From Holophagae bacterium (GTDB taxonomy: Bacteria > Acidobacteriota > Thermoanaerobaculia > Thermoanaerobaculales > Sulfomarinibacteraceae): 41,268 bases of DNA. The stretch lies in the NCBI GenBank assembly GCA_030618605.1, contig JAUXDC010000002.1, positions 1-41,268 of the forward strand, in the 5' to 3' direction. The translations under genes were made by a program, and so were the position numbers. The notes beneath the pieces are model-generated. The model was given only the letters and a program-made list of their open reading frames with translations. It was not told where the DNA came from and searched no databases. Positions 10,404-40,822 of the stretch are shown here, one piece after another. The first letter of the stretch is position 1. Each line of letters opens with the position of its first letter.

Positions 10404-12593
10404 CTACAGCCGTCCCCGAAGGGTCAAGGTGAAGGAACGACCCGGCGCGAGAACCGCATCTTCATCGGCGGAACCCAGATAGGTTCGGTCGAAGAGGTTC
10501 CGGCCGAGTAGCTGAAGTTGGATTTTCTCGGAGAATGCCCATCCTATCGCGCCGTCCAGCACGGCATAGCCGGGAATAATCTGCTCTGAGGGACCCGGGT
10601 CGTCGTGGCGGGCGAAGGCCGCACCCCGGATCATCCACCTGAGACCCTCCGGCTTCGAGTCCCGCAGAACCAGGGATACCCCGGGAGCGGGGATGTCATC
10701 GACCGGAGAACCGTCGTCCCGAACCTCACCATCCAGCCACCATGCCCCGAGGTGCAACGACAGGGAATCGGACAACGACCTTGCCGCCTCGAGTTCGATG
10801 CCGCGGATTTCACCCTCGCCACGATTACGGAAGAAGTAGTCGTCATCGATTTTGTACCTCTCCACCATGTCCCTGATCCGGTAAAGGTATGCGGAGCCGC
10901 CCACATTCCAGGTGCCGGAGCGATAACGCAGCGCCAGGTCAAACTGATTGGCAGTCTCCGGGTCAAGGCCGGGGTTTCCCGTGATGAATCCTCGGCCGGT
11001 CTCTCCCCGGTAGTAGCGATCGGACAGCAGGGGATCCCGAAATCCGCGCGCCAGCTGAAGGGTCAATTCCAGGTTGTCGACAAGTTCAATTCCAGCTCCG
11101 ACATAACCTGAGACCGCTTCGTCCGAGGTCGAATGATCACCAAAATATCCACCTGAGTTTGATGTTCGAACCAAATCCAGGCGTAATCCACCGGAGAGCC
11201 GAACGGGTCCGAGGGATCCGTGGAGGGCAGCGAACAGGCCATAGTCCTGGTTCTCTGCATCTTTGATGGCCTTTTCGCTGAAGATCTCCTGCAACTGACC
11301 ATCCGGCCCGGCTTCAAACCCGGTATTGAGTGACTCGAGGCCATACCTCGAGGTGATGTTGGCCCCCAGGACCAAGCGGGACGAGCCCAGTGAACGCTCC
11401 ACCTCGAGCCGCATTTCCATATCGTTGGCACGCGTGTCCGACTGGGCCCGTTCGGTCGGTTGTGAACCGGGGTCCAGATCGTCCTTGTTCAAAACCAGTT
11501 GATAACGATCCCAGGCCACCGACACAGAGAGCCTCTTCCAGTCTCCAGACAACGGTTGTTCGAAGGCCAGGTTGAGCCGGTCAGAGTCCTCCAAAGGGTA
11601 AAAGCGCCGTTTGGTCTTCGACTCCGGGCTGGGCTTGCCGACATCCCGGGCCCTGTCGGAGCGCCATGACATACGAAGTACGCCTCGGCCGATCACACGC
11701 TGCCAGCCTGCCCGGATGCCCCACGTCTCCCATCGTGTATCAAAGACCTCACCCTCGGGACTGGAATAGTCCGAATAATCCCGAACGTGCGCGCCGAGGA
11801 GGAAGCCACCTCCAGCAAGGGGCATTTCGACATCTGCCGCGGCACCCCAGCCCGGCATGCCCTGGGCGCCCTCAAGGGCATAGCGCACTCCGATTCCATC
11901 GGGATAGGGCGAGGGCATCCGTGACCGTGCCCGGATGATCCCTCCAAAGGCATCCGATCCGTAGGCGACCGACCCCGGTCCTCGGATCACTTCGATCTCA
12001 CCAAGCGTATCCGGATCCAGGAAGGTTGCCGACGCGCCTGCACGACGTTCGGTAACGACACGGCCGTCATCGAGGAGGATCAACGTCCGGTGCTTGGGCA
12101 GGCCTCGCAGGCTGGGCACGACCGAACGTCCCTCTCCCCCCCTGCCGGCCCCGGGCACAGTTGCCATGACATCACTCAAGGAGGTGGGAACCCTTTGGTC
12201 GAGTTCCTCCCTGCCGAGAATGGTCGCCACAGCCGCCGGAGGCAGTTCGAGGTCCGAGATGACCGCGCTGACCACTTCGACCGTGCCCCCGATCGCCCCT
12301 ATGACCAGCGTCTGAGGCGGTTCCTCAGCCCACTCAACCAGCGTCATCGGCTTCAGGGCAACCCCGTCGGCACGCGCGACAATCAACACGACGGGCAAGT
12401 CCGGAGTTGGGTCGAGATCGACCAGACCCTGGCCATCGGCGATCCAACTGCCCGGAAGACCGACCACCGTTACGTGAGCGCCTGCCAGGGGCCTGCCGTT
12501 CGAACTGACAAGAACCAACTCGACGCCAAAGATCGAATGAACCATGCTGATCAGGAGTAATGAAAAAAAGACTGGGGTCAGGAACCTCTTCAA
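10404..12593 (-). CDS. TonB-dependent outer-membrane receptor with N-terminal carboxypeptidase-regulatory-like domain
   Basis: The plug region is LSDVMATVPGAG...SLRGLPKHRTLILLDDGRV...EIEVIRGPGSVAYGSDAFGGIIRA, followed by a long beta-barrel. The start is chosen at TTG 12593, with GGAGGA 3-4 nt upstream, giving the signal peptide MKRFLTPVFFSLLLISMVHSIFG. The listed 873-aa ORF (to 13025) runs through the riboswitch on the other strand. Confidence 0.85.
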   Translation of the reverse strand: MKRFLTPVFFSLLLISMVHSIFGVELVLVSSNGRPLAGAHVTVVGLPGSWIADGQGLVDLDPTPDLPVVLIVARADGVALKPMTLVEWAEEPPQTLVIGAIGGTVEVVSAVISDLELPPAAVATILGREELDQRVPTSLSDVMATVPGAGRGGEGRSVVPSLRGLPKHRTLILLDDGRVVTERRAGASATFLDPDTLGEIEVIRGPGSVAYGSDAFGGIIRARSRMPSPYPDGIGVRYALEGAQGMPGWGAAADVEMPLAGGGFLLGAHVRDYSDYSSPEGEVFDTRWETWGIRAGWQRVIGRGVLRMSWRSDRARDVGKPSPESKTKRRFYPLEDSDRLNLAFEQPLSGDWKRLSVSVAWDRYQLVLNKDDLDPGSQPTERAQSDTRANDMEMRLEVERSLGSSRLVLGANITSRYGLESLNTGFEAGPDGQLQEIFSEKAIKDAENQDYGLFAALHGSLGPVRLSGGLRLDLVRTSNSGGYFGDHSTSDEAVSGYVGAGIELVDNLELTLQLARGFRDPLLSDRYYRGETGRGFITGNPGLDPETANQFDLALRYRSGTWNVGGSAYLYRIRDMVERYKIDDDYFFRNRGEGEIRGIELEAARSLSDSLSLHLGAWWLDGEVRDDGSPVDDIPAPGVSLVLRDSKPEGLRWMIRGAAFARHDDPGPSEQIIPGYAVLDGAIGWAFSEKIQLQLLGRNLFDRTYLGSADEDAVLAPGRSFTLTLRGRL

Positions 12594-12629
12594 GAGTCCT
12601 CCGAACGCGAGACCATAGCACCGTAGTGG

Positions 12630-12674
12630 GCAATTCGTCGAACGAGGGCATGTGTAAGAGGTCGAACGAATTGC
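12630..12674. repeat. Inverted repeat GCAATTCG...CGAATTGC (29-nt spacer) containing the direct repeat GTCGAACGA
   Basis: Read directly. It lies about 37 nt upstream of the TBDR start on the minus strand. Its arms are nearly identical to the hairpin at 4364-4384 (shared ACGAATTGCTT(T)GCC). Confidence 0.6.
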
Positions 12675-12720
12675 TTTGCCCCTCTGGGACGGTGAAAGGT
12701 CAAACGAGGGCATGGATCCC

Positions 12721-12749
12721 TTGACCCGCCCTGTCCATCGCGCTACGGT
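12721..12749 (+). promoter_or_regulatory. Candidate sigma70-type promoter for the riboswitch/btuB-like transcript (TTGACC-17 nt-TACGGT)
   Basis: The -35 is at 12721-12726 and the -10 at 12744-12749, with 17-nt spacing. The predicted start site lies a few nt before riboswitch P1 (12763). This rests on sequence match only. Confidence 0.4.
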
Positions 12750-12762
12750 GTCATCGACATTT

Positions 12763-13021
12763 GGGATGGTCAAACCCGGAGACGGCGACAGCGGTGCAGA
12801 TGCGCGTCGAAGCGATGATTTCCGGGCAGGGGAAGCCGGTGAGAATCCGGCGCGGCCCCCGCCACTGTAACCGGAGACGATGGGTTCTAGGAAAGAATGG
12901 GGAAACCCGTTCCGACCAACCACTGGATGGCGTAAACCTCTGGGTTGGCCACTGGGAAGGTGAACCTCTCGGTGTCGTGTGAAAGTACGACAGATCCGGG
13001 AGCCAGGAGACCTACCATCCC
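12763..13021 (+). promoter_or_regulatory. Cobalamin (B12) riboswitch
   Basis: The conserved core GGGAAGCCGGTGAGAATCCGGCGCGGCCCCCGCCACTGTAA (about 12828-12870) is present, as are a second GCCACTGGGAAGG element (12948-12960) and the B12 box AGCCAGGAGACCTACC (13001-13016). A P1 candidate pairs GGGATGGT (12763-12770) with ACCATCCC (13014-13021). The element sits 25 nt upstream of the GTG of a BtuB-like receptor, whose SD is GGGAGG at 13033-13038. Confidence 0.9.
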
Positions 13022-13045
13022 CCAACCGAAACGGGAGGTTTCACC

Positions 13046-14893
13046 GTGTCTGTACGCCGTCTTTTTTCTGTTCCCTGTCTTCTCGCCCTTTACCTCGCTT
13101 TGGGGCTCCCCAGTATCTCAATCGCCCAGGATTCAACTTTCTCTTCCGAGATTACCGTCACGGCCACCGGCACGGAGGAGGGCCTCGAAGACGTCCCCCT
13201 TCCGATCACGGTGATCACCGAAGAGGAAATGGAAAACGCACAGACCGAATCGGTCGCCGATATCCTCAGGAGGGTTCCCGGCCTCAACGTCGTTCAATCC
13301 AGCGGACCAGGTTCGGTGACCTCGGTCTTTACCCGGGGTACCGAAAGCGACCACACTCTCGTGATGATCGACGGCGTCCGCCTCAATTCCCCGTATTTCG
13401 GGGGCTTCGATTTCTCTCAGCTTGCCACCGCCGGCCTGGGCCGTATCGAAGTAGCCCGGGGACCCTACTCTGCCCTCTGGGGCGCCGATGCCGTCGGCGG
13501 TGTGATCAATTTGATCCCCGGAACGGGCACCGACGGATTCCGCGGCACCCTGACCGGCGAATGGGGCGGAGGTTCATGGGAACGCTATGAAGGAGCTATC
13601 ACCTATGGATCAGAGGTTTTTGACCTGATGGCCTCCGGCCTTATGAGAGAGGGAGAGGGCGATCTGGACAACTCGGATTTCGACCTTCACCAGGGCCTGG
13701 TCAACGCCGGTCTGAAGTGGGGCGAGGGCAGCAGGATCTCTTTTCTCTACCACGAGGTCGATTCGGAACTGGGAATCCCCTTTTCGTCTCCCGGTACCAT
13801 GACTCCCTTGCGCCGCCAGGAAACCAACCAACGAACCCTGGCAATCCCCCTCAAATGGGCAATCTCGAATCGTTGGTCATTGGAAGCGACGGTTTCCACC
13901 GTTGAGCGAAAACTGGACTTCTCCGATCCCGACGACCCCTGGGGCTTCACCTGGTCTCACACCGAGACCGAGACCACGCAGGCCCGCCTGGCATCCCATC
14001 ACACCCTGGGAAATCACAGACTGTCCTGGGGCGCGGAATGGCGCGAGGACGAAGTGACCGACGGCTCGGTCTACGGCCCCAATCTGGAGGCGGCCAGCTA
14101 CGACATGACCTCGCTCTTCGCCCAGGACGTCTGGCGCATGGGCAACGCCGTGACCCTGGTATTCGGGGCCAGATGGGACGACACAGAACAATGGGGCTCA
14201 GAGATTTCCCCACGAGCCAATCTGGGATGGAGGGTGTCCGGCACCCTGGAACTCCAGGCCGGATATGGCGAGGCCTACCGCCAGCCATCGGTTGGTGAAC
14301 TCTTCTATCCCTTTTCCGGAAATGCCGACCTGCAGCCCGAAACCTCGGACAGCCTCGAAATCGGTCTGGTCTGGGGTGGGCAAAGCCAGACCTCACCGCG
14401 ACTGCACTTCAGCGCCTTCTCAACCGGCATCGACAATATGATCGTGTTTGACTACGTCAACTACTCCCTCCAGAACATCGGCCGGGCCGAGATCAACGGC
14501 TTCGAGGCAGCGTTAGACGTCGTCCACTCCGATGCGCTGAACTCTCACATGCAGATCACATGGTTGGATACCTCCGACGGTTTCGGCAACGAACTGCTCA
14601 GACGTCCCGAATGGAGCGGCGCCTACACTCTGTCCGGAACCTTCCTGTCCTGGCTCAAGGGCTATGGAACCGTCAGGTATGTCGGCCACCGCTTCGATAT
14701 CGATCCCCTGACCTTCGAGACAACACGAACAGACAATTTTATTACTGCCGACCTCGCGGTGGCCACTCAAATCTGGGACACCATCGAGTTGACCCTGCGA
14801 GCGACCAATCTGTTGGATGAGCACTACGAGGAGGTTCTCGGCTATCCCGCCCAGGGGCGCCGGATCATCGGTGGTGTTCGATTGGATTTTTGA
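13046..14893 (+). CDS. btuB: TonB-dependent receptor, BtuB-like (vitamin B12/cobalamin-type)
   Basis: 615 aa with a GTG start. It has a signal peptide ending ...SISIAQ, a TonB-box-like EITVTATG, the plug LRRVPGLNVVQSSGPGSVTSVFTRGTESDHTLVMIDGVRLN and ...RGPYSALWGADAVGGVINLI, and a C-terminal ...GGVRLDF. It is preceded by the cobalamin riboswitch. Confidence 0.88.
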   Translation: MSVRRLFSVPCLLALYLALGLPSISIAQDSTFSSEITVTATGTEEGLEDVPLPITVITEEEMENAQTESVADILRRVPGLNVVQSSGPGSVTSVFTRGTESDHTLVMIDGVRLNSPYFGGFDFSQLATAGLGRIEVARGPYSALWGADAVGGVINLIPGTGTDGFRGTLTGEWGGGSWERYEGAITYGSEVFDLMASGLMREGEGDLDNSDFDLHQGLVNAGLKWGEGSRISFLYHEVDSELGIPFSSPGTMTPLRRQETNQRTLAIPLKWAISNRWSLEATVSTVERKLDFSDPDDPWGFTWSHTETETTQARLASHHTLGNHRLSWGAEWREDEVTDGSVYGPNLEAASYDMTSLFAQDVWRMGNAVTLVFGARWDDTEQWGSEISPRANLGWRVSGTLELQAGYGEAYRQPSVGELFYPFSGNADLQPETSDSLEIGLVWGGQSQTSPRLHFSAFSTGIDNMIVFDYVNYSLQNIGRAEINGFEAALDVVHSDALNSHMQITWLDTSDGFGNELLRRPEWSGAYTLSGTFLSWLKGYGTVRYVGHRFDIDPLTFETTRTDNFITADLAVATQIWDTIELTLRATNLLDEHYEEVLGYPAQGRRIIGGVRLDF

Positions 14894-28331: not shown

Positions 28332-29273
28332 ATGCGCAGAGACCGCAACATCTTCCATTGGGCGCTGATCGCCTCCCTCCTCCTTCACCTGGTTGTGATT
28401 TTTATGATTGTGCCTGGGGTCGGGAACATCTGGCCCCAGGCTGTGGAACCCGTCGTGCAGATTCAGCAACCTGAAACGGAATCCCAGCCGCTGCAGTTTG
28501 AGTTCGTCGACCTCGCCGAAGACCGAGAAGAGGAACCGGAAGACCCCGAAAAGGCCCTGCTTTCGGACATGGACCGTCGTGCCCATGGGGGCGAGGGAGA
28601 GGCTTCAACGAGCCCTTCATCCCAGGGAAATACCCCTCAGCTGGTCCAGGCCGACGGCGGCCAGACCTTCAACGCGGGTGCACCGCCCCAGCAGGCGGGC
28701 CCTCCTGCTGAGGTTCCACAGCCTCAAGAGGAACAACCGGATCAACAGCAAATGGAGCCTCAAACCGAGGTCGTACCGCAGCCCGAGGGCGCCGGAGAGG
28801 TCGACGAAGTGGTCCCCACACCCCGTGCCCAGACACCGAGGATTCGACTACCGCCTCCAGGCGTTTGGGCCCTGCCTCCCGATATCGGCGGCATCAGAGA
28901 GAACCCGGACCGCCGTGGCGGCGGCGTTGATACCGGAGGTTTGAGTTTCGACACCCAGTGGTATGACTGGGGACCCTACGCCAAGATGATGCTGGCCAAG
29001 ATTCGCCGAAATTGGGACATCCCGGCTATTGCGCGAATGGGCGTTACGGGCGCGGTGCGTATCCGGTTTTTCATCGAACGCGACGGCACCGTCACCGGCC
29101 TCCAGATCACCGACGAAAGCGGCAAACCACCTATGGATTTCGCCGCCCGCGATGCCATCCTCGACTCCTCGGCTTTCAGACCCCTGCCTGCCGATCTTTT
29201 AGGCGTCACCCGAGAGGGCGTCACCATTACATTTTTCTACAATAGGAGACCGCCTGAGCGAGGCGGTCGATAA
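28332..29273 (+). CDS. tonB: TonB-family energy transducer
   Basis: 313 aa with the N-terminal anchor WALIASLLLHLVVIFMIV, a long P/E/Q-rich linker and the C-terminal TonB domain (...GVTGAVRIRFFIERDGTVTGLQITDESGKPPMDFAARDAI...). It is followed by exbB-exbD. Confidence 0.85.
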   Translation: MRRDRNIFHWALIASLLLHLVVIFMIVPGVGNIWPQAVEPVVQIQQPETESQPLQFEFVDLAEDREEEPEDPEKALLSDMDRRAHGGEGEASTSPSSQGNTPQLVQADGGQTFNAGAPPQQAGPPAEVPQPQEEQPDQQQMEPQTEVVPQPEGAGEVDEVVPTPRAQTPRIRLPPPGVWALPPDIGGIRENPDRRGGGVDTGGLSFDTQWYDWGPYAKMMLAKIRRNWDIPAIARMGVTGAVRIRFFIERDGTVTGLQITDESGKPPMDFAARDAILDSSAFRPLPADLLGVTREGVTITFFYNRRPPERGGR

Positions 29274-29284
29274 CGGGAGTACTC

Positions 29285-29926
29285 ATGACTCATATTCTCA
29301 GCATCCTCTCTTCCGGCGGGCTCGTGATGATCCCCCTTGGCCTGCTATCACTGGTTGCAATGGCCATCGTCATCGAGCGTTTCTGGATGCTTCGTGCATC
29401 CAGATACATGCAGCCGACGACGGTGGCAACCCTCAACGAACTCTTGGCGGGAGGACAATTCAAGCAGGCCGTCGACTACTGCCGACGAAATCCAGGGCCC
29501 TATGCCGATCTGGTCGCCACCCTGGTCGAAAACCGCCCCGCTCCTTATGACGAACTCAAACAGATCATGGAAGACACCGCACGCCACCGGCTCCATAATC
29601 TCCAGCGGGGACTGGCTGCCTTGGGCACAATCGTCGCGGGGGCCCCACTCCTGGGGCTTTTGGGAACCGTTGTCGGCATGATCAAGATCTTCGCCGTCGT
29701 GGCCACGGCCGGGTCCCAGGTCACCGAAGCTCTGTCTCTTGGCATTTCGGAGGCCCTGGTCACAACCGCCAGCGGTCTGATCATCGCCATTCCGGCCCTT
29801 TTTGCTCACAGCTTCCTCGAGGCCCGCGCCGGCGCCATCATCTCGGAGATGGAGATCCGGCTGATCGACCTGCTCCACTTCGTGCGACGTTCCGATAAAG
29901 AGAGTGACGACGAGGCCGCGGCGTGA
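29285..29926 (+). CDS. exbB: MotA/TolQ/ExbB proton-channel protein
   Basis: 213 aa with three TM helices and LAALGTIVAGAPLLGLLGTVVGMI plus EALVTTASGLIIAIPA motifs. Confidence 0.9.
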   Translation: MTHILSILSSGGLVMIPLGLLSLVAMAIVIERFWMLRASRYMQPTTVATLNELLAGGQFKQAVDYCRRNPGPYADLVATLVENRPAPYDELKQIMEDTARHRLHNLQRGLAALGTIVAGAPLLGLLGTVVGMIKIFAVVATAGSQVTEALSLGISEALVTTASGLIIAIPALFAHSFLEARAGAIISEMEIRLIDLLHFVRRSDKESDDEAAA

Positions 29927-30514: not shown

Positions 30515-32293
30515 CTAAAGCGGCGCAACACCGCCCGAGGACTGATGCTCCAACCACAGGCCGGAAAAGACGTTGAGAAACCGGAAGTGGGAGCGATAGA
30601 CCTGTTCCAACAGTTCAGTGTCCCCCTGAAAGAGCATGTCGTCGATAAACCACCGGAAACGCCGGTCCACCTCTCTGGCCCTCTCGAGGCTCTGAGCCGA
30701 CTGTTCCAGGACTTCCAGGACCTTGTCGGCATGGCCGGCGTCCCTGAGTCGACCGATTTCCGACAGTTCCTCTTCCATCTTGACTCGTAATGCGGCCGAA
30801 GTCAGAAAGAACGCCTGCAACTCCCAGGGCAGGGTTCCGATCTGGCCCCTCATTTCCATCATCTTTCGATAGGTGGCCGCCTCCCATGCTTCCAACTTGA
30901 GGTGGAGGAGTTCCTTTGCGCTCGATGCCTGATCGATACCGTGTTCCCAACTGACCAATTCCAGGCCGAAGAGAATCTTGTGGAGAGAGGTCGCCAGTAA
31001 TGCATCGGACGGCAAGAGGTCGATCAAACTGGGTTCGTCCTCCATCGGCCCCAACCCTTCAATCTCATCAGGCTCTTCCTCAATCGCCTGAGGAGGACCG
31101 AAAGGGCCGAGTTCCGACGTCACCCCCCCGGGGGTTGCAACCGATGCCCTTTCAGGCTCAACAACCGGCTCCGAGGTCGGCTCGGGATCGAGAAACACCT
31201 CCGGAGGGGCCTCGGTCACCGGAGGGCTGATCACCTCGATCTCATCCTGAGCGTCACCGAGTATTGCCGCCGGCTCTTCACCGGCCGCCGCCGGTTTTGC
31301 CTGGGGCGCCCTGCGAGGCTCAAAGGAATCAAGCACCGTCTGCATTGATTCCCTGAGGGCTGCAATGTCTTCTTTCTTGACGTTGTTGTCACGCCTCTTG
31401 GCGTCAAAAGTCTCGCGAGACGTTCGGAAGATCTCAAGCTGTCGTCTCAACTCCTCGTGCGCCACGCCTGGATTGCGCTCGAGGTATCTCTCGATCTCGA
31501 ACACCTTGTTGGTATCCTCGAGGATCTTGGCCTCTTCCTCGAGATAGAGCGCCAGAAACTGGTTTTTTAATTCGATGTTGGTCTCAACGATTTCGATCAA
31601 CAAAGTAGGGTACAGCCCGACCTTTCCCAGTCTTTCCTTGAGTTCTCGATATCGATCGATGACACGGGAATGCAGCAGGCCCTGGAAGTCCGGAATTGCC
31701 TGAACCTCCTCGCGCAGGTCTTTGATCAATCCGATCAGTGTGCGTTCCTCACCAGGGGTCGGCGCCGGAACAGCAGCAATCTCAGCCAGTCGTTCGAAGC
31801 TGGTCCGCAACTCAACCCGATCCCGCAACCTATCCGGTCCACCGTCCGAAGAACTCCCGGCCAATCTGGTCAACAAGATATCCAGCTTGTCAAAGTTGTC
31901 CCGACTCGGGGTCGGTTCCATAATATAGAACTTGACCAGGGCGAAGAGGATCTTCTCATCCTGATTCTTCAGGTGATCAAAAAACTTTCGCAGTAACGAG
32001 GGCGAAAACTCCGCTTCCAATTTTGAGAGTTCGTGGTGGATGCGATCCAGCTCCCGATCGAGTTTTTCAAATTCCTGGATTATGGAGGCTTCGGCATCGG
32101 TCCCTACGCCAACCTTGGGCAACAATGCCTGCACATCGCGGTACAGAGCCTGAAAATCGAAGTCGTACGGCAGGGTTCCCCGCCCCTGGTGCTTGTACAC
32201 ACCACCAAGGAACTGGTAGAACGTCCAGAGCGATCTGAACCGATCAGAGAGGCCGGTATATCGCAAACTCAATTCGGTGCCCCGACTTTCCAT
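30515..32293 (-). CDS. Hypothetical protein, 592 aa, largely helical with a central acidic/Pro-rich linker; no recognisable family
   Basis: It is a long ORF with coding-like composition. The start is chosen at ATG 32293 (MESRGTEL...); the listed TTG at 32323 would come within about 20 nt of the divergent hpt start. I recognised no catalytic or binding motif. Confidence 0.7.
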   Translation of the reverse strand: MESRGTELSLRYTGLSDRFRSLWTFYQFLGGVYKHQGRGTLPYDFDFQALYRDVQALLPKVGVGTDAEASIIQEFEKLDRELDRIHHELSKLEAEFSPSLLRKFFDHLKNQDEKILFALVKFYIMEPTPSRDNFDKLDILLTRLAGSSSDGGPDRLRDRVELRTSFERLAEIAAVPAPTPGEERTLIGLIKDLREEVQAIPDFQGLLHSRVIDRYRELKERLGKVGLYPTLLIEIVETNIELKNQFLALYLEEEAKILEDTNKVFEIERYLERNPGVAHEELRRQLEIFRTSRETFDAKRRDNNVKKEDIAALRESMQTVLDSFEPRRAPQAKPAAAGEEPAAILGDAQDEIEVISPPVTEAPPEVFLDPEPTSEPVVEPERASVATPGGVTSELGPFGPPQAIEEEPDEIEGLGPMEDEPSLIDLLPSDALLATSLHKILFGLELVSWEHGIDQASSAKELLHLKLEAWEAATYRKMMEMRGQIGTLPWELQAFFLTSAALRVKMEEELSEIGRLRDAGHADKVLEVLEQSAQSLERAREVDRRFRWFIDDMLFQGDTELLEQVYRSHFRFLNVFSGLWLEHQSSGGVAPL

Positions 32294-32345
32294 GTATCGA
32301 GAAGGATACACTGAGCAGGGCAACAGGACAAATCAGGAGGTCTCA

Positions 32346-32927: not shown

Positions 32928-32990
32928 GACTGTTCCCTTCCCGTTCCGGCTGTGCCGGGTTATCATACCGCCGCATCGGGAGGGTATCGC

Positions 32991-33866
32991 ATGGATCCGA
33001 GTCGCTATCGAATCTTGATACGGGGTGGAGGCGAGTTGGCCTCGGCCACGGCTCACCATCTGTTCCGGGAAGGTTTTACCAGGATTCTGATCCTCGAACG
33101 GCGTTTCCCTAAGGCTGTCCGCAGGTCAGTGTGCTTTTCGGAGGCAATTCTGGACGGACACGCCACGGTTGACGGCGTCACAGTTGTTCACGTCCGGACC
33201 CTGGAAGGGGTTGAGGAGGCGCATCGGAAGGGCACGATAGGGATCATGGCGGCCAATTTGGAGAAAGTTATCGAGCAGTGGCGGCCCGACGTGTTTATCG
33301 AAGCTACGATGCTCAGGCAGAACTGGGGATTGCAGCGCTCGATGGCGCCCGTCGTCATCGCGCTGGGCCCGGGATATACGGCGGGAAAAGACTGCCACGC
33401 GGTCGTCGACACGGTCAGGGGCCCAGGGGTCGGGTCAGTCCTCGAGGATACCGGTGAAAATCTGGAGAGCCGACCTCCCGCAGATATCATGGGTTTTACG
33501 GACGAGCGTTCGCTCAAGGCTGTTCGCGACGGCATCTTTTTCACACAACTCAAGATCGGAGACGAAGTGGAACGTGGCGAGCGGGTCGGAACGGTCGTAT
33601 CTGTCTTCGGCATCGAAGATTATCGACGTGGGGTTCCGATTGATGCCTCCTACACCGTCACCGCCAGAATCGGCGGCGTGATCCGAGGCCTGTTGAGAGA
33701 CGGGGTGCCAGTCAAGAAGGGCGACCGCATCGGTGACGTCGACCCCCGGGGTTTCACCGATGACCTCGACCATCTGTCGGACAAATCCAGACGCGTCGCC
33801 GAGGGCGTCCACGAGGCTCTGGTCGATATGGCCCACCACCTTTCACCAGTTACCTCACCCCGGTAA
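32991..33866 (+). CDS. YqeB/EF2563-family protein (selenium-dependent molybdenum hydroxylase maturation family), tentative
   Basis: 291 aa from ATG 32991, with GGGAGGG 6-7 nt upstream. The N-terminus ILIRGGGELASATAHHLFREGFTRILILERRFPKAVRRSVCFSEAILDG matches my recollection of the Rossmann-like start of this family. No search was run. Confidence 0.5.
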   Translation: MDPSRYRILIRGGGELASATAHHLFREGFTRILILERRFPKAVRRSVCFSEAILDGHATVDGVTVVHVRTLEGVEEAHRKGTIGIMAANLEKVIEQWRPDVFIEATMLRQNWGLQRSMAPVVIALGPGYTAGKDCHAVVDTVRGPGVGSVLEDTGENLESRPPADIMGFTDERSLKAVRDGIFFTQLKIGDEVERGERVGTVVSVFGIEDYRRGVPIDASYTVTARIGGVIRGLLRDGVPVKKGDRIGDVDPRGFTDDLDHLSDKSRRVAEGVHEALVDMAHHLSPVTSPR

Positions 33867-33873
33867 ATGATTT

Positions 33874-33901
33874 GAAGGGGTGAGGGGTTAGGGGTCAGGA
33901 G
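33874..33901 (+). repeat. G-rich heptamer tract GAAGGGG TGAGGGG TTAGGGG TCAGGAG
   Basis: Read directly. GGGGTGAGG (33877-33885) pairs with CCTCACCCC (33853-33861) across the YqeB-like stop codon. Confidence 0.85.
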
Positions 33902-33999
33902 ATGCGGGACGGCAAACTCGGACGCGGAGCCCCTCAGTCCATCGGGCCCAGATAATGGCACCTGGATGTCTCCGTACCGCACGAAGGATCGCATGGAAA

Positions 34000-34869
34000 A
34001 TGCGCCCTCCGGCTCTGGCGCTCGGCGGCGGAGGCACACGTGGTTTCGCCCATATTGGTGTCCTCCAGGAATTGGATCGACACTCGCTCCCCATCCGTTC
34101 AATAACCGGTACCAGCATGGGTGCCATCGTTGGAGCTATGTACGCATGTCTGGGTTCCGGCGACGCGGTGAGAGAAAAGTGGCGTGAGGCCCTCGCCCGT
34201 GACCTCCTCCCAAGTCCGCCACAATCTTCCCGTTCTCGCAGCACTGAAGTGCAGGAACACCCTCTCCTGCAGGCCGCCCGCCGGTTTCGGAATCGACTGG
34301 TCGTTTCCTTTGCCCTCCACCAGCCATCGATGCTGGAAGGCACGTCGATCGCCGAGGCCGTTGAGTTTCTCCTGCCGGACGTCCAAATCGAAGATCTTCC
34401 CATCCGGTTTTCGGCCGTCGCCGTCGACCTTGATACTGGGGAGAGCGTCACTCTCGACGCCGGTCCCTTGAGGACTGCAGTCAAAGCCTCCGGGGCCATT
34501 CCAGGAGTCCTCCCCGCCGTCGAAATCGACGGCCGCCAACTGGTGGACGGTGGAGTGGTTTCGGAAATCCCCGTCCGCGAGGCACACGGGGCGTACCGAC
34601 CTGTCTTTGCAGTCGATGTATCGATGGACCTCGGCAAGCGATCCGACAGCGACATCGCGCTGAACACGATGATGAGAACCCAAACGATGACTGCCGCCAT
34701 TGTCAGGCAGGACCAGCTCCGTGGCGCCCGTTGGGTCCTGAAACCTGAAGTCGGCCACGCAACCTGGTCCGACTGGGACCTCTTCGAGGAGATGGTGGAA
34801 ACCGGCGCAGAGGCAATGCGGGCGTGGTTGGGGATACTCGATGCTCGATACTCGATACTCGATATTTGA
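34000..34869 (+). CDS. Patatin-like phospholipase (RssA-like)
   Basis: It has the oxyanion motif LGGGGTRG, the nucleophile elbow GTSMG and the catalytic Asp motif LVDGGV. The start is chosen at ATG 34000 (GAAGGA 11 nt upstream; MRPPALALGGGG...). The listed start at 33955 is also possible. Confidence 0.88.
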   Translation: MRPPALALGGGGTRGFAHIGVLQELDRHSLPIRSITGTSMGAIVGAMYACLGSGDAVREKWREALARDLLPSPPQSSRSRSTEVQEHPLLQAARRFRNRLVVSFALHQPSMLEGTSIAEAVEFLLPDVQIEDLPIRFSAVAVDLDTGESVTLDAGPLRTAVKASGAIPGVLPAVEIDGRQLVDGGVVSEIPVREAHGAYRPVFAVDVSMDLGKRSDSDIALNTMMRTQTMTAAIVRQDQLRGARWVLKPEVGHATWSDWDLFEEMVETGAEAMRAWLGILDARYSILDI

Positions 34870-34882
34870 TACTTGATCCTGT
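34834..34882 (+). repeat. Seven degenerate heptamers ATACTCG ATGCTCG ATACTCG ATACTCG ATATTTG ATACTTG ATCCTGT
   Basis: Read directly. The tract encodes the last 11 codons of the patatin ORF (…ILDARYSILDI*) and continues 13 nt past its stop, ending 36 nt before the giant ORF. Confidence 0.9.
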
Positions 34883-34918
34883 AAGAGTCGCAGGGGGCAT
34901 ACCGCTGCGGCCCCTGGA

Positions 34919-37900
34919 ATGACACCCTATAATCAATCCGTGACGATCAGACGAACCATCCTGTTGGTCCTCGGGATCATCGCGGCCCTCGTGGTTGCAG
35001 GCATTGCCATCCTGCACCTCTCGTCGTTCCAACGCGGCGTTGCGGAGCGAGTGACGACAGCAATCGAATCGAAGACGTGTCTCTCAGTTGATTTTCAGTC
35101 TTTTGACTATCGCCTGTGGCCCGCAACTCTTGAAGTCCGGGGCATCAGCATTTCGGATCCTCTAGGCCGGTCGCTGACAATTGAGGCCGTCGACGCTTCC
35201 TGGGCGTGGTCCCAGTTGATCGGCGGCACGCCTCGGATTCACCACTTGGCTCTCGAAGGACTCAATGCGGACGCCTTCGCCTTGCCGATGCCCTGTCCCA
35301 ACGATGACGACGGAGGCCCGGAGGCGGGCCCATGGAACGCCCTGGCCATTGACGATCTGACCATCAGCCGAGCCAGGGTCTCTGGGGAGAGTCCCGATTT
35401 GGCATTCTCCTGGACGGGCCTCGAGGCCCAGGCGATGTTGGTCGATCAAAAACTCGGTCTTCGATTGACTGCCGACAGTCTCCATCTTGATCGAAAAGAA
35501 AGGAATCTATTTGTCGGCCCCCTCGAACTCGAACTCCAGGGCTCGGCGAAGTCCATCGAGCTGAGAACCCTGAAAATTTCCAACGGACCCATTCAATGCG
35601 AAGCGACCGGGTCGGCCGCCGGCAACGGTCGGGAGGCGACGGCTCATGTTTCGGCAACGGTGGGCCTCTCAGAGGTCCTCCATTGGTGGGATCCCTCCCT
35701 TGCAGCCCTCGTCAATCCGGAGGGCCCCCTTGGTGTGGTCGCAGATATCGGCTGGAAAGCGGATTCCGGCCTTCGGGCCACAGCACGACTCGACGGCCGG
35801 CCCATCGGCCTGGCCGGTTACACATTCAGCCGGCTGGAGGCAACATATTTGAATGGCCGCCTGACCGCTGAGGCCGCCGATCCCTCATGGGGTCTGGTCA
35901 AGGTGGAATCGGCTGCCGATGGCTTTCTCGAAGTCAACGCCGTGTTGGATGGTGCGATACCCGCACCGGCCCTCAGGCTGGCGCATATCGAGTTACCGGA
36001 GGGCATTCCTGCAGACGGAGAGATTTCAGGAGATCTCCACGTCCGATTCCCTCTTCCGCTCCAGATCGACCGGATGACGGGCTTGGCCGACCTCGAGGCC
36101 CAATGGAAAGGCGGCAGTGCCCACCTCAAGGGAAGCGCGGACCACGGGATTGTGATCGACCGGGCAGACGTCGATATCTTCGGAGCCACCGCTGAGGCGT
36201 CAGGGACCGTCTCCTTCGACGGAAATATCAAACTGACGGGCACGGTCACGGTCCCGGAACCCGGAGAAACCATAGCCCACCTGTCGACTCTCCTCCCTGA
36301 AGTCGGGAACCCGGCCGTCGGTGGAGGTCCGTTGATTGCCGGCGTGACTCTATCGGGCACCGCGGCGGCACCGAGGATTGATGCCGAGATCCACTGGGAC
36401 TCACCCGAGATCCAGGGTCACCAGCTCGAAAACGCCTTCGCCACCTTTCAGGGCACTGCCGATGACATCGACTGGACCACGATGCTCGAAGCCGATAGTG
36501 TTCGGCTCAATGCCCAAGGCAGGGCCTCAATCCGATCCGCCACGGCGGCGGGAGATTGGCAGTTGCAGGCTCCGGACCTCGGCGCCCTCCAGCACACCAT
36601 CGTCATGGCCGATCAATCGGAGATTGCCGGATCGATCACCGGTAACGGCAACTTCAGCGTCGACACGACCGGCTGGCGGGCTTCTGCTCTCCTTGAGGGC
36701 CACGAGATCCAGGCCCAAGGCGTCACCATCCCCCATCTGATGCTTGAAGCCGAGGCAGACCCCAACTGCGTCTCAATCGACACCCTTGCGGCCGAGGTCC
36801 TCGGGGGACACATCGAGGGCTCAGGAACCGTGTGTCCCGCCGGTCTCGACGGCGAGGTCAAGGCGACAATGCAATGGTCCAGCCTGGACCCCTCTCAGAT
36901 TCTCGACACCCTTCCCGAGGCCGCACGGGGACTGATCAGCGGCCGGTTCGACATCAAAGGCCCACTCTCAGACCCGGCCGGGTCAGCCCTGCTCTCATGG
37001 GAAACGACAACCGATGAAGCTCCGCTGGAAAGAGCCGGTGTTCAGGCTCACCTCGAGCACGGCTTGATTACGGTAGTCTCCGACCGGCTCGAGAGCATTT
37101 CCGGGCCCTTGACCCTGCGAGCCGATCTGCCGATGGGCAATGTCCCCAGACCTGGGGGACTCTTTCCGACTGCCCCATCCGGACCGTGGCGGGTCACTCT
37201 CAGCGGCCATGACCTCGCGCTGGCACCCCTCCTCGCCCATTTCGATCGAGAGGATCTCAAACCGGCCGGCAGCTGCGATCTGGACCTCCGGACCTCATGG
37301 TTCCCCGATCGGGGCGGCCTTCCCGAGATCCACCTGGAACTGACCAATTTCGAGATGGCGATTGCCGAGCGCCGAATGAGAGCTCAATCACCCATCCGGT
37401 TGGTTCTTGACGACCGCGGGATCGTCTCTGCCGATATCAATCTCGAGGGTGACCTCAGTCAGTTCGTCGGCAGCGGCTCGTACAATCTGAAAACTGAAGA
37501 AATCGACGCCTCGATCGAAGGATTGTTGGATCCGGACCTGGCTCTTCTCTCTCCCGTTCCCATGACGATTCACCGACCCATGACAATCGAGGGCCGGATC
37601 GAGGGCCCTGCAGGATCCTGGGTCGGAAACCTTCATCTGGACCACGAAGGCGGATCGATCGAGATGCGCGATCCCCCGCTGGAAATCACCGATGCCTCGC
37701 TCGAGGCACGCTGGAGCAACAGAGGTCTGGAAATCACCGAGGGTTCGGCAAACGTCAACCGGGGGTTTGTCACCTTGGGCGGTGCCTGGGATCCGAAAAG
37801 CGGCCAGGGCATCATTGCCGAACTGTTAGACGTGACTACCCTCCTTCCAGGAGGCATCGTCACGCGCTGGGACGGCGTCATCGCCCTGGAACCCGCGTCT

Positions 37901-40822
37901 GACCGCCTGATGGTGATTGTCGGCAATCTGGACCTGAAGTACGGGATATGGGACTACCCTTTTGACCTGGGAGCCGCCTTTCGAGGCGGGGGCGATGAGG
38001 CCGTCCCCGGCGCCGACGACATCACCCACCGTATCGGACTGGATGTGGAGGTTCGCGGCGGCGGCGGCGTCACGGTCGACAACAATCTGGGACAATTCGG
38101 GGTTCGCTGGAATACGCTGGAAATCGGCGGTACCGTCGCCAAACCCAGGATCATCGGAGACCTCAACCTTCTTCCCGGCGGCGTGCTGATGGCCGCCGGC
38201 CAACCGATCAAGATTCGAAGAGGTCTGGTTCAATTCACCGGCGACCCTCTGACCGACCCCGTACTTGAGGTAATACCGGAAGACCGGGGCGGCACGATGT
38301 CCGGGGACCTCGATGCCTCGGGGAGCGCATCACAACAGCAAGCGTCCAATCTGGCTGCCGCGGGTCTGGCTTCCGGCCTCGGAGCCGTCTTCGGCCTGGA
38401 GAACACCACGATCAGGCCCGAAGAAATCGCCATGGAGACCGATGAAGACACCAGCACCGACTTCTCGATCGGCCAACAACTGACACATAATACCGCCCTG
38501 TTCTTGACGACCGATTTACGGAACAGCCAGAAGCGTACGACGCTGCTCCAACTGTGGCGCCTCCCCTCTTTTCCCGGTTTGACCTTTCAGGCCCTGACCC
38601 GGACCGACCCGGGCGAAGCAGACGTCAAACTGCTGCAACGATTCAGCTGGGGAGGCACCCAGGCCACAGACGATCAACCCCAATTGCACAAGGTGTCCCT
38701 CGAGGGGGAGTGGCCGCGGTCAAAACGGAAACTCCGGAAGGCAACCGGCCTGGTTCGTGACCAACCCTGGGACCCGTTCTTTCTTTTCCTCGGAGACATC
38801 CGGCTGGAAAAGAAACTCACTGAAGAAGGGTGGCCGGAGGCACGGGTCGACAGCCGGGTCGAAGGCACTCCCGAACGCCCCATCGCGGTCTTTAGCTGCT
38901 CTGCCGGCCGACACGTTGAGTTCATCTTCGAGGGCGACTCGATTGGCAAGAGTCTCCGATCGAGTCTGCGGCCGCTCTACCGTTTCCCCCCATTTGAGCG
39001 AACTGCCCTGGCCGAAATGGAACGTCTGGCCACACGACACCTGTGGGCCGCAGGATACCCTGATGCCACAGTCAACATTATCTCGGATGGAGAGGGTCAG
39101 GTAACGGTCTCTGCAGAAAAAGGCCCGGAGACCACCCTGCACGGCCCCTTTCTCGAGGGAGTGCCTGATGCCGCCGCTCCCTCTCTGATGGCGCTGCTCA
39201 GCCAGTCGACCGAGTTGACCGAGATCTCCAAGGATCCCACTCGGGCCGAGCGGGTCGTTCGGCGAACCCTTGCGACCGCCGGATATCGGGACGTGCGCTC
39301 AGTCGAGAGCTGGACCGAACCCACAGTCGACGGCGCCGTCGAGGTCCACCTCCGGGTCGATCCCGGGCAGCAGGCCAGGGCCGTTCGCGTGGATCTTGTC
39401 GGCGGCGACCCCCTGGGACTGACCGATGCAGAGGACTTTGCCATCCGACCGGATATGATCCTGGACCGCGGAACAATCGGCACAGCGGTCGCCTCGCTCC
39501 GAAGATCCTACCGGGAACAAGGCTTCACCGGGGTTCGGGTCCGATCCCAGATTTATGAATACGACGACCAGCAGTGGGCCGTCCTCTTGACTCTCGACCC
39601 CGGGGAAACCTCCATCATCGACCGGGTTGAGATTTCCGGGAGGAGACATCTCAGCGAGAAGTCCCTTCTCAAGGACCTCCCAATTCAACCCGGCGAGTTG
39701 TTTCTGTTGGACGATTTGGACGACAGCATCGCCCGTCTGGCTACCTTCGAACCGGTCGAACGCGTGACGGCAACGACCCGGCCCGACGGCGATCGGGTGG
39801 TCGTCGACCTCGATATTATCGAGAAGGCACGCTGGACTGGGGAGGTCGGCGGCGGTTGGAACTCCGACCGTGGGGCCACCGCGCGTGTGGGCATCAACGA
39901 CAACAATCTTTTCGGACGGGGCTTCCGCCTGGGTCTTCGGGGCCGGATGGAGCAGGACTTCCTCCAGGGCCGCATCATGCTGGCGCTGCCCCCCCTGCCT
40001 GGTGGACGTTTTTCGGCCAGCCTCAACGCCAGCTATACCGAGGACGTGCTCCCGGCGGAATTCGAGAGCGACATCGTCATCAACGAGAACATCCGCGCCG
40101 CCGCCATAGAGGGGCACTACCAGCTCAAACCCGGCCTCTGGACCCGCGGCTACTACCGATTCACCCGAACACGAACCTTCGAGAAGGACTCAACCGATCC
40201 CTACCCCTTGGACATCACCATCGATCTTGCGGTGCTCGGCGGGCAGATTGTTGTCGATCGACTGGACAATCCCTTCGACCCGCGCCAAGGCTTCTACACC
40301 GCCCTCGACCTCAGCTGGGCCGGAGAAGCAATCGGTTCGGACAAGGAAAACATCCGGAGCCTCCTGACGGGTTCCCTCGCCATGGAACCTCGCAACGGTT
40401 GGACCTGGTTTCAGAGTCTCCGTCTGGGCGCCGCCAAACCGCTCAACGGCGTATTGGATAGCCAGTCCCGTTTCTTCGCCGGCGGCTCCGCATCGATCCG
40501 CGGCTTCAAGCTGGACAGCGTGGGTCCGACCGAAACCCTGGGCGGCATCACTATCTATGCTGGCGGCGAGGCGCTCTTCGTCCTCAACGAGGAACTGCGC
40601 TTCCCACTGTGGCAGAGTCTAAGGGGCGCAGTCTTCGTCGATACCGGACAGGTGTGGAAGACCTGGTCGGACGCCGATTTTGACCTCTCCGTCGGCGCCG
40701 GCATCGGTCTGCGATGGAGCACTCCGGTCGGGCCCTTGTGGGTCGACGCCGCGTGGCCCGTCGCCAACCCCGGGGAGAACTCCGGGGCGAGGTACAGCTT
40801 TGGGATTGGCCGGACGTTTTAG
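34919..40822 (+). CDS. tamB: Giant envelope protein: TamB/AsmA-like module (N-terminal anchor plus DUF490-type C-terminus) fused in frame to a POTRA repeats plus Omp85 (TamA/BamA-like) beta-barrel
   Basis: It is an uninterrupted 1,967-aa ORF. The N-terminal anchor is ILLVLGIIAALVVAGIAILHL. The TamB-type C-terminal region is ...GVTVDNNLGQFGVRWNTLEIGGTVAKPRIIGDLNLLPGGVLMAAGQPIKIRRGLVQFTGDPLTDPVLEV... through ...LLQLWRLPSFPGLTFQALTRTDPGEADVKLLQRFSW (aa 1244). The linker GGTQATDDQPQ follows. POTRA-like units come next (…IIDRVEISGRRHLSEKSLLKDLPIQPGELF…). The Omp85 barrel carries FFAGGSASIRGF, GAGIGLRWSTPVGPLWVDAAWPV and the terminal GIGRTF. Confidence 0.85.
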   Translation: MTPYNQSVTIRRTILLVLGIIAALVVAGIAILHLSSFQRGVAERVTTAIESKTCLSVDFQSFDYRLWPATLEVRGISISDPLGRSLTIEAVDASWAWSQLIGGTPRIHHLALEGLNADAFALPMPCPNDDDGGPEAGPWNALAIDDLTISRARVSGESPDLAFSWTGLEAQAMLVDQKLGLRLTADSLHLDRKERNLFVGPLELELQGSAKSIELRTLKISNGPIQCEATGSAAGNGREATAHVSATVGLSEVLHWWDPSLAALVNPEGPLGVVADIGWKADSGLRATARLDGRPIGLAGYTFSRLEATYLNGRLTAEAADPSWGLVKVESAADGFLEVNAVLDGAIPAPALRLAHIELPEGIPADGEISGDLHVRFPLPLQIDRMTGLADLEAQWKGGSAHLKGSADHGIVIDRADVDIFGATAEASGTVSFDGNIKLTGTVTVPEPGETIAHLSTLLPEVGNPAVGGGPLIAGVTLSGTAAAPRIDAEIHWDSPEIQGHQLENAFATFQGTADDIDWTTMLEADSVRLNAQGRASIRSATAAGDWQLQAPDLGALQHTIVMADQSEIAGSITGNGNFSVDTTGWRASALLEGHEIQAQGVTIPHLMLEAEADPNCVSIDTLAAEVLGGHIEGSGTVCPAGLDGEVKATMQWSSLDPSQILDTLPEAARGLISGRFDIKGPLSDPAGSALLSWETTTDEAPLERAGVQAHLEHGLITVVSDRLESISGPLTLRADLPMGNVPRPGGLFPTAPSGPWRVTLSGHDLALAPLLAHFDREDLKPAGSCDLDLRTSWFPDRGGLPEIHLELTNFEMAIAERRMRAQSPIRLVLDDRGIVSADINLEGDLSQFVGSGSYNLKTEEIDASIEGLLDPDLALLSPVPMTIHRPMTIEGRIEGPAGSWVGNLHLDHEGGSIEMRDPPLEITDASLEARWSNRGLEITEGSANVNRGFVTLGGAWDPKSGQGIIAELLDVTTLLPGGIVTRWDGVIALEPASDRLMVIVGNLDLKYGIWDYPFDLGAAFRGGGDEAVPGADDITHRIGLDVEVRGGGGVTVDNNLGQFGVRWNTLEIGGTVAKPRIIGDLNLLPGGVLMAAGQPIKIRRGLVQFTGDPLTDPVLEVIPEDRGGTMSGDLDASGSASQQQASNLAAAGLASGLGAVFGLENTTIRPEEIAMETDEDTSTDFSIGQQLTHNTALFLTTDLRNSQKRTTLLQLWRLPSFPGLTFQALTRTDPGEADVKLLQRFSWGGTQATDDQPQLHKVSLEGEWPRSKRKLRKATGLVRDQPWDPFFLFLGDIRLEKKLTEEGWPEARVDSRVEGTPERPIAVFSCSAGRHVEFIFEGDSIGKSLRSSLRPLYRFPPFERTALAEMERLATRHLWAAGYPDATVNIISDGEGQVTVSAEKGPETTLHGPFLEGVPDAAAPSLMALLSQSTELTEISKDPTRAERVVRRTLATAGYRDVRSVESWTEPTVDGAVEVHLRVDPGQQARAVRVDLVGGDPLGLTDAEDFAIRPDMILDRGTIGTAVASLRRSYREQGFTGVRVRSQIYEYDDQQWAVLLTLDPGETSIIDRVEISGRRHLSEKSLLKDLPIQPGELFLLDDLDDSIARLATFEPVERVTATTRPDGDRVVVDLDIIEKARWTGEVGGGWNSDRGATARVGINDNNLFGRGFRLGLRGRMEQDFLQGRIMLALPPLPGGRFSASLNASYTEDVLPAEFESDIVINENIRAAAIEGHYQLKPGLWTRGYYRFTRTRTFEKDSTDPYPLDITIDLAVLGGQIVVDRLDNPFDPRQGFYTALDLSWAGEAIGSDKENIRSLLTGSLAMEPRNGWTWFQSLRLGAAKPLNGVLDSQSRFFAGGSASIRGFKLDSVGPTETLGGITIYAGGEALFVLNEELRFPLWQSLRGAVFVDTGQVWKTWSDADFDLSVGAGIGLRWSTPVGPLWVDAAWPVANPGENSGARYSFGIGRTF

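Follow-up and report, generated by a model that had tools for sequence, protein, structure and literature searches.

A TamB-Omp85 fusion gene family in Acidobacteriota as a putative single-chain translocation and assembly module

Can the two partners that form a translocation and assembly module (TAM), namely a TamB protein anchored in the inner membrane and an Omp85 barrel in the outer membrane, be encoded as one polypeptide? This question is raised by a single open reading frame (ORF) on contig JAUXDC010000002.1 of a Holophagae bacterium (Acidobacteriota; NCBI GenBank assembly GCA_030618605.1), of which positions 1 to 41,268 of the forward strand were analysed (this whole stretch of 41,268 nt is referred to as the window). 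In Escherichia coli, the TAM consists of two polypeptides encoded in the order tamA then tamB, and TamA, which has a signal peptide of its own, carries three POTRA domains. The first TamAB structures date from 2026 (PMC12800296, PMC13119328), and both the engagement of TamB with Omp85 and the main role of the TAM, lipid transport versus protein folding, are actively debated. The topology that an initial annotation assigned to the window ORF, namely an anchor, a beta-rich body, a DUF490 end, a linker, POTRA domains and a barrel in one polypeptide, holds in our analysis. We consider a single-chain, covalent TAM to be the best reading of this gene, and a probable one.

The ORF listing and translation confirm a continuous frame of 1,967 codons, by a wide margin the longest ORF of the region, and the motifs originally quoted from it (the linker, FFAGGSASIRGF and GIGRTF) each occur at the positions assigned to them. 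Because 723 residues follow W1244, the DUF490 region is not C-terminal and the protein has no free terminal TamB strand.

The first part of the protein has the make-up of TamB. The proposed N-terminal anchor is borne out by a peak 19-residue hydropathy of 3.18, starting at residue 14, and by a predicted helix at aa 9-32, and a strong N-terminal membrane helix is present in 145 of 159 family members. AlphaFold2 (AF2) was run with the family alignment on two segments, aa 1-1000 and aa 800-1967. In the first model (predicted local distance difference test, pLDDT, 86.5), the anchor helix is followed by a second helix and then by continuous beta strands; the second (pLDDT 80.3) opens with beta strands, passes through a low-confidence helix at about aa 1133-1152 and reaches five terminal TamB strands, the last of which ends at W1244. 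Across both models, the strands are near-continuous from aa 55 to aa 1130 (pLDDT 80-86). Pfam gives weak AsmA and YhdP matches at aa 14-170. The identification of a TamB body with a DUF490 end is secured by family profiles: a 52-member profile matches E. coli TamB (9xdc_B, residues 719-1244 of 1259) with E 1e-43, and a DUF490-only profile does so with E 4e-19. Foldseek with the N-terminal model returned just generic beta-belt and barrel proteins, such as the lipid-binding ApoB100, since full-length TamB is absent from the PDB.

The second part is an Omp85 protein. Pfam places Omp85 (PF01103) at aa 1663-1967 (E 3.7e-37; 129 bits against a cut-off of 24 bits) and POTRA at aa 1567-1633 (E 9e-12, 46 bits), and the second AF2 model shows the β-α-α-β-β pattern of POTRA five times, followed by a 16-strand barrel. 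Both the loop-6 (V/I)RG(F/Y) motif and the C-terminal aromatic beta-signal are present. The POTRA and barrel assignment of the initial annotation therefore stands, with the correction that there are five POTRA domains, as in BamA, rather than the three of TamA, and that the Omp85 part is BamA-like rather than TamA-like. Foldseek aligned about 800 columns of the aa 800-1967 model with full-length E. coli BamA (E 5e-38), and TamA was also matched (TM-score 0.72 on the target); the 52-member family profile matches BamA with E 7e-80 and TamA with E 6e-58. The top NCBIfam match is BamA (TIGR03303), at 169-173 bits, under its cut-off of 297. The TamA equivalog NF047950 scores 100-105 bits (cut-off 625), the TamL model 77-83 bits (cut-off 400) and the TamB equivalog NF047952 14.5 bits (cut-off 825). 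Based on the 173 bits versus 297 on the BamA model and the five POTRA domains, the Omp85 part is a diverged paralogue of BamA. Database names for the family are generic: NCBI uses ‘translocation/assembly module TamB domain-containing protein’ or ‘BamA’, and IMG uses ‘TamA’, ‘BamA’ or ‘YaeT’.

A fused gene could also be an assembly or sequencing artefact, in which a frameshift or a lost stop codon merges an adjacent tamB and Omp85 gene. Unfused tamB-bamA pairs of the same order do exist among relatives, and read-through is seen in long-read assemblies: in the control protein P0121 (798,694-bp contig), a frameshift lets the frame read through an unfused tamB-bamA pair, and the BamA signal peptide is retained, and L019 (7001-10143) is a true fusion with a frameshift inside its Omp85 part. 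Against this explanation stands the extent of the family. Searching 5.8 billion proteins through a word index gave 53 relatives, almost all of 1,900-2,470 aa and with TamB, POTRA and Omp85 Pfam domains; the closest are five full-length proteins at 65-81% identity and the partial P0002 (1,760 aa) at 90%. An exhaustive phmmer search with aa 800-1967 was performed on 1.84 billion representatives clustered at 50% identity, and its best 150 matches are nearly all about 1,850-2,280 aa long, each matching as a single stretch across the junction. A third search, seeded with a Holophagales member, yielded 165 further proteins. Among 423 proteins fetched, 261 are distinct and full-length, with DUF490 followed by the barrel (1,803-2,471 aa, median 2,081), a POTRA region of mostly 400-480 aa and, in all but one, a C-terminal F (260 of 261). 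These independent fusions, drawn from numerous assemblies and sequencing platforms, share 20-90% identity with the window protein; the fusion is not a one-off. In addition, GTDB genome contigs were scanned using a 6-sequence alignment, and this gave, read straight off the contigs, 10 fused ORFs that are complete and flanked by stop codons on either side. Close homologues (65-90% identity) keep the junction in frame, with substitutions and no indels, third-position GC varies between 0.67 and 0.78 along the gene without a step at the junction, and no remnant of a signal peptide is left there, unlike in P0121. On sequence grounds, the fusion is a real gene, and the probability of an artefact is practically negligible.

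The source labels of the family include Thermoanaerobaculales (91% identity over the compared part), ‘Holophagae’ (83%), Thermoanaerobaculia, Thermoanaerobaculum sp., Holophagales, Vicinamibacterales and unclassified Acidobacteriota. By these labels, the window most likely stems from an acidobacterium of the Thermoanaerobaculales type. One label, ‘Polyangiaceae’ for L015, is doubtful: its best matches among the proteins retrieved, P0293 and P0274, are also those of L013, an Acidobacteriota metagenome-assembled genome (MAG).

The junction itself has a constant layout. In all 52 aligned members, a last TamB strand that resembles the beta-signal of outer-membrane proteins is followed by a variable polar spacer and then by POTRA1. 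Counted between the last TamB strand and the first strand of POTRA1, this spacer measures 14-24 residues in the 52 members (14 in the window protein) and is variable in sequence. Hydropathy reveals no hydrophobic, signal-peptide-like segment at the junction of the window protein, nor in 154 of 159 relatives. We infer that the mature fusion protein stays uncleaved. Alternatively, the chain could be a polyprotein that is exported whole, after which a periplasmic protease cuts the linker to release separate TamB and Omp85 subunits, as the polar, sequence-variable and probably exposed linker might allow. No conserved cleavage motif is visible in that linker, however, and its restriction to 14-24 residues is a better fit to a structural tether than to a disposable spacer. 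To our knowledge, such processing has no precedent in Omp85 or AsmA-like proteins, and we regard it as quite improbable.

How the two parts of a single-chain TAM would engage each other can be compared with the E. coli structures. The initial annotation had relied on non-covalent docking of the TamB C-terminus on TamA POTRA1, a view that is now outdated: in the 2026 structures, the last TamB strand (beta6, residues 1251-1259) and TamA beta1 form a hybrid barrel, disulfide pairs put the TamB C-terminus at the periplasmic rim, and the POTRA domains touch both the body of TamB and the coupling loop of TamB (PMC12800296, PMC13119328). The corresponding contact in the fusion family was sought in an alignment of 239 fusion proteins by mean-field direct-coupling analysis (DCA) of the columns for aa 1176-1249 and aa 1636-1967. 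The raw top DCA pairs are noisy, without enrichment for inter-domain pairs. Coupling scores were averaged over all antiparallel strand registers, and this register scan was benchmarked on the barrel's own hairpins, of which it recovers b3-b4, b5-b6, b6-b7, b7-b8, b9-b8, b12-b13 and b14-b15 at z 3.4-5.6.

For the last TamB strand (aa 1233-1244), the best partner is barrel beta1 (aa 1639-1650), in an antiparallel register that places W1244 across from residue 1639 and comes first among 325-375 registers (z 5.5-5.9). The result is reciprocal, the last TamB strand also being the best partner of beta1, and all 12 residue pairs of the register score positive. The register ranks second and first in two random halves of the alignment (z 3.6 each) and still first when the window's own clade is excluded (z 5.5), and parallel registers reach z values of at most 2.9. 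Based on this covariation, we conclude that the hybrid-barrel contact is probably conserved in the fusion family, where it is indicated by covariation, as it is seen by cryo-EM in E. coli. For beta1-beta16 and beta1-beta2, the scan, which has low power, gives no covariation signal; within this limit, the pattern at beta1 would agree with a barrel whose seam is largely open. The second-best partner of beta1 is the loop-6 region of aa 1859-1868 (nt ~40493-40522), which overlaps the SIRGF motif (z 3.9).

In the proposed mechanism, the protein would be exported by Sec through its signal-anchor, and its TamB-like beta body, roughly 1,200 residues in length, would span the periplasm as a bridge-like conduit, presumably carrying lipid by homology to TamB and other AsmA-like proteins. 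The DUF490 end would hand over the lipid at the outer membrane, where the last TamB strand would pair antiparallel with beta1 of its own type of Omp85 barrel, giving a hybrid barrel as in E. coli TamAB. The chain would then exit the membrane at the periplasmic rim near the start of beta1, reach POTRA1 14-24 residues further on and return with the end of POTRA5 to beta1. If the pairing takes place within one molecule, as we propose, the arm of five POTRA domains necessarily closes into a loop. The C-terminal barrel would be inserted by a separate BAM complex that recognizes the terminal F beta-signal.

Several points weigh against this single-chain reading. The pTM of the AF2 models (0.50-0.56) leaves the relative placement of the domains uncertain. 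As a single sequence, the protein scores 22.3 bits on Pfam TamB (PF04357, aa 1028-1118), just below the cut-off of 22.4, and phmmer with aa 901-1260 as a single sequence did not find TamB in the PDB; the borderline call became firm once family profiles were used, and the TamB homology of this segment is apparently detectable in the PDB by profiles only. For the covariation, the effective sequence number is about 177. Its signal is, moreover, alike for pairing within one molecule and between molecules, and the 14-residue linker may be short for POTRA1 to be reached from the barrel rim. Finally, no separate BamA was found on fusion-carrying contigs, although the search reached only close relatives that share short words with the query, so that this absence means little.

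Two of these points would suit an intermolecular arrangement, in which each molecule would dock its last TamB strand on beta1 of another to form dimers or chains: the covariation is compatible with it, and with five POTRA domains to pass, 14 residues may not let POTRA1 return to the barrel rim. The E. coli TamAB stoichiometry is 1:1, however (PMC12800296), the narrow bounds on linker length speak for a fixed distance within the molecule, and a covalent tether strongly favours intramolecular pairing through local concentration. Pairing between molecules thus appears rather unlikely, and pairing within one chain is preferred.

The search for a separate BamA raises the further question whether the fused barrel could be the organism's sole BamA, an essential outer-membrane-protein insertase tethered to the inner membrane via TamB. 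The five POTRA domains, an alignment that covers the whole of E. coli BamA and BamA as the top NCBIfam match would agree with this, as would, with little weight, the absence just mentioned. Yet the fused part scores 173 bits on TIGR03303 (cut-off 297) against 317-379 bits for stand-alone BamA of Thermoanaerobaculia, and many stand-alone proteins labelled BamA are found in MAGs labelled Thermoanaerobaculia. According to Heinz et al. (2015; PMC4494059), Acidobacteria have two BamA-type genes, one of which is linked to tamB. The first copy of such a barrel could, in addition, hardly be inserted by itself. We therefore hold a role as sole BamA to be improbable. A bolder version of the single-chain TAM can also be conceived, in which the TamB bridge would be locked intramolecularly and permanently to the lateral gate of its own barrel, with a closed POTRA loop, and the barrel would not be a protein insertase but a lipid exit port, dedicated to this role and constitutively open; in a stronger form, it would also be the sole BamA-type protein. 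This proposal is speculative and on balance unlikely. If its stronger form were true, outer-membrane-protein insertion would be physically tied to the inner membrane.

The relatives also suggest how the fusion came about. The initial annotation described the gene order as reversed; TamB does precede Omp85, but this order already exists in unfused tamB-bamA pairs of related Acidobacteriota (L021, L058, L028, L084 and L088). In L084 (4027-10772), a 1,317-aa tamB and a 923-aa bamA are separated by a 20-nt gap, and in L088 (2168-8754) the two genes overlap by 4 nt. The stand-alone BamA proteins downstream in such pairs carry signal peptides, are about 920-970 aa long and reach 317-379 bits on TIGR03303. 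A neighbour-joining tree of the barrel domain, which is crude and without support values, unites the fused barrels in what is nearly a single clade, with these stand-alone acidobacterial proteins as its sister group. The adjacent pairs suggest, as the simplest history, that the fusion arose from a tamB-bamA pair, or a copy of one, by losing the stop codon and the BamA signal peptide, after which the barrel would have diverged to its present score on TIGR03303. A different order, with bamA, a surA-like gene and then tamB, occurs in L087. As reported by Heinz et al. (2015; PMC4494059), spirochaetes also have the tamB-then-bamA order, and the second, TamB-linked BamA-type gene of Acidobacteria, with extra POTRA domains, is the proposed origin of TamA. 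The step from adjacent tamB and bamA genes to a fused gene may be regarded as an evolutionary snapshot that complements this model of TAM origin.

Among known systems, E. coli TamA-TamB (cryo-EM entries 9xdc/9xdd and 23sp) shares with the fusion the inner-membrane signal-anchor, a beta-taco body with DUF490 that spans the periplasm, an Omp85 partner and the position of the last TamB strand against beta1. The fusion differs from it in being one polypeptide with TamB ahead of Omp85, five POTRA domains, no internal signal peptide and a TamB ‘C-terminus’ that is not free. The unfused pairs of tamB and bamA in Acidobacteriota and spirochaetes (PMC4494059; Borrelia TamB-BamA, PMC5582053) have tamB upstream and a BamA-like partner as well, and the acidobacterial pairs belong to the same phylum; in these pairs, by contrast, the genes are separate and BamA scores above the TIGR03303 cut-off and has a signal peptide. 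In PlpD (patatin-Omp85) and WD40-like Omp85 proteins (Heinz and Lithgow 2014, PMC4104836), a domain is likewise fused upstream of POTRA and barrel, but these proteins are fully exported with cleavable signal peptides, and they neither have an inner-membrane anchor nor cross the envelope. A TamB-family bridge is also combined with a lineage-specific Omp85 in the TamL-TamB system of Bacteroidota (PMC12045153) and in chloroplast TIC236-TOC75, although the partners are separate proteins and TamL is a lipoprotein.

In agreement with the initial annotation, which knew of no described example, no description of a TamB/Omp85/BamA fusion was found in full-text-searchable literature; most subscription journals fall outside this scope and a prior mention is possible. 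Heinz et al. (2015; PMC4494059) mention no fusion. The TamB-Omp85 fusion thus appears to be undescribed. A single-chain TAM kept across a phylum would imply a 1:1, effectively permanent association of both partners in these bacteria and would mean that the last TamB strand can contact beta1 without the TamB C-terminus being free. It makes the geometric prediction that POTRA1 lies within 14-24 residues of the barrel rim, and it would offer a natural stoichiometric construct for cryo-EM and complementation. The coordinates of the fusion gene and its parts are listed in Table 1.

Table 1. Features of the fusion gene in the window, and TPR protein genes in related loci (coordinates of the respective locus)
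Feature	Position	Strand	Basis or remark
Whole fusion gene	34919..40822	+	ATG start, 1,967 codons and stop; ORF listing, translation
N-terminal transmembrane signal-anchor	nt 34955..35017 (aa 13-33)	+	Hydropathy; AF2 helix
Beta-rich TamB-like body	nt 35081..38650 (aa 55-1244)	+	Two AF2 models; weak AsmA/YhdP
DUF490-homologous region	nt 37616..38656 (aa 900-1246)	+	Extent from family DUF490 profile
Last TamB strand, ...VKLLQRFSW	nt 38615..38650 (aa 1233-1244)	+	AF2 strand (model residues 434-445), conservation, covariation
Linker GGTQATDDQPQ	nt 38651..38683 (aa 1245-1255)	+	Coordinates checked
Five POTRA domains	nt 38690..39823 (aa 1258-1635)	+	AF2, Foldseek, Pfam
16-strand Omp85 barrel	nt 39833..40819 (aa 1639-1967)	+	Pfam, AF2
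Barrel beta1	nt 39833-39862 (aa 1639-1648)	+	Within Omp85 barrel
Loop-6 SIRGF motif, within FFAGGSASIRGF	nt 40472-40507 (aa 1852-1863)	+	Motif located
Terminal GIGRTF	nt 40802-40819 (aa 1962-1967)	+	Motif located
TPR protein gene, L083	12905-13513	-	N-terminal hydrophobic leader
TPR protein gene, L085	11047-11685	-	N-terminal hydrophobic leader
TPR protein gene, L086	9940-10560	-	N-terminal hydrophobic leader

Scans for promoters and terminators around the fusion gene gave nothing usable. The intergenic stretch before its start codon (window 34851-34880) contains a short repeated motif, CTCGATACTCGATATTTGATACTTGATCC, built of GATACT/GATA units, and no sigma-70-like promoter was found at this position. 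Upstream, a patatin-like phospholipase gene (window 33955-34869, +; Pfam E 1.8e-34) ends 49 nt before the fusion gene. A lipase adjoining a lipid bridge would be a suggestive pairing, and the gene was considered as a member of the same system; it was rejected, because tblastn with it gave no match beside the fusion in any of the related loci, among them that of the close relative L004. No Pfam match was obtained for the ORFs at 33888-34925 (-, 345 aa), 30515-32323 (-, 602 aa) and 32952-33866 (+, 304 aa); the 345-aa minus-strand ORF overlaps the patatin gene and is probably spurious.

In many relatives, a gene for a TPR protein of about 200 aa lies directly downstream of the fusion and points toward it (Table 1), with similar matches in L005, L006, L007, L009, L010, L011, L016, L017 and L019; no match to it is present in the 446 nt of the window that follow the fusion gene. 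This protein may be an accessory factor, perhaps BamD-like.

Elsewhere in the window, a gene for a TonB C-terminal domain protein adjoins one for an ExbB/MotA-type channel protein (28332-29926, +), and two divergent genes encode TonB-dependent receptors (10404-13025, -, and 13046-14893, +). Together, these genes point to a diderm envelope with active outer-membrane transport.

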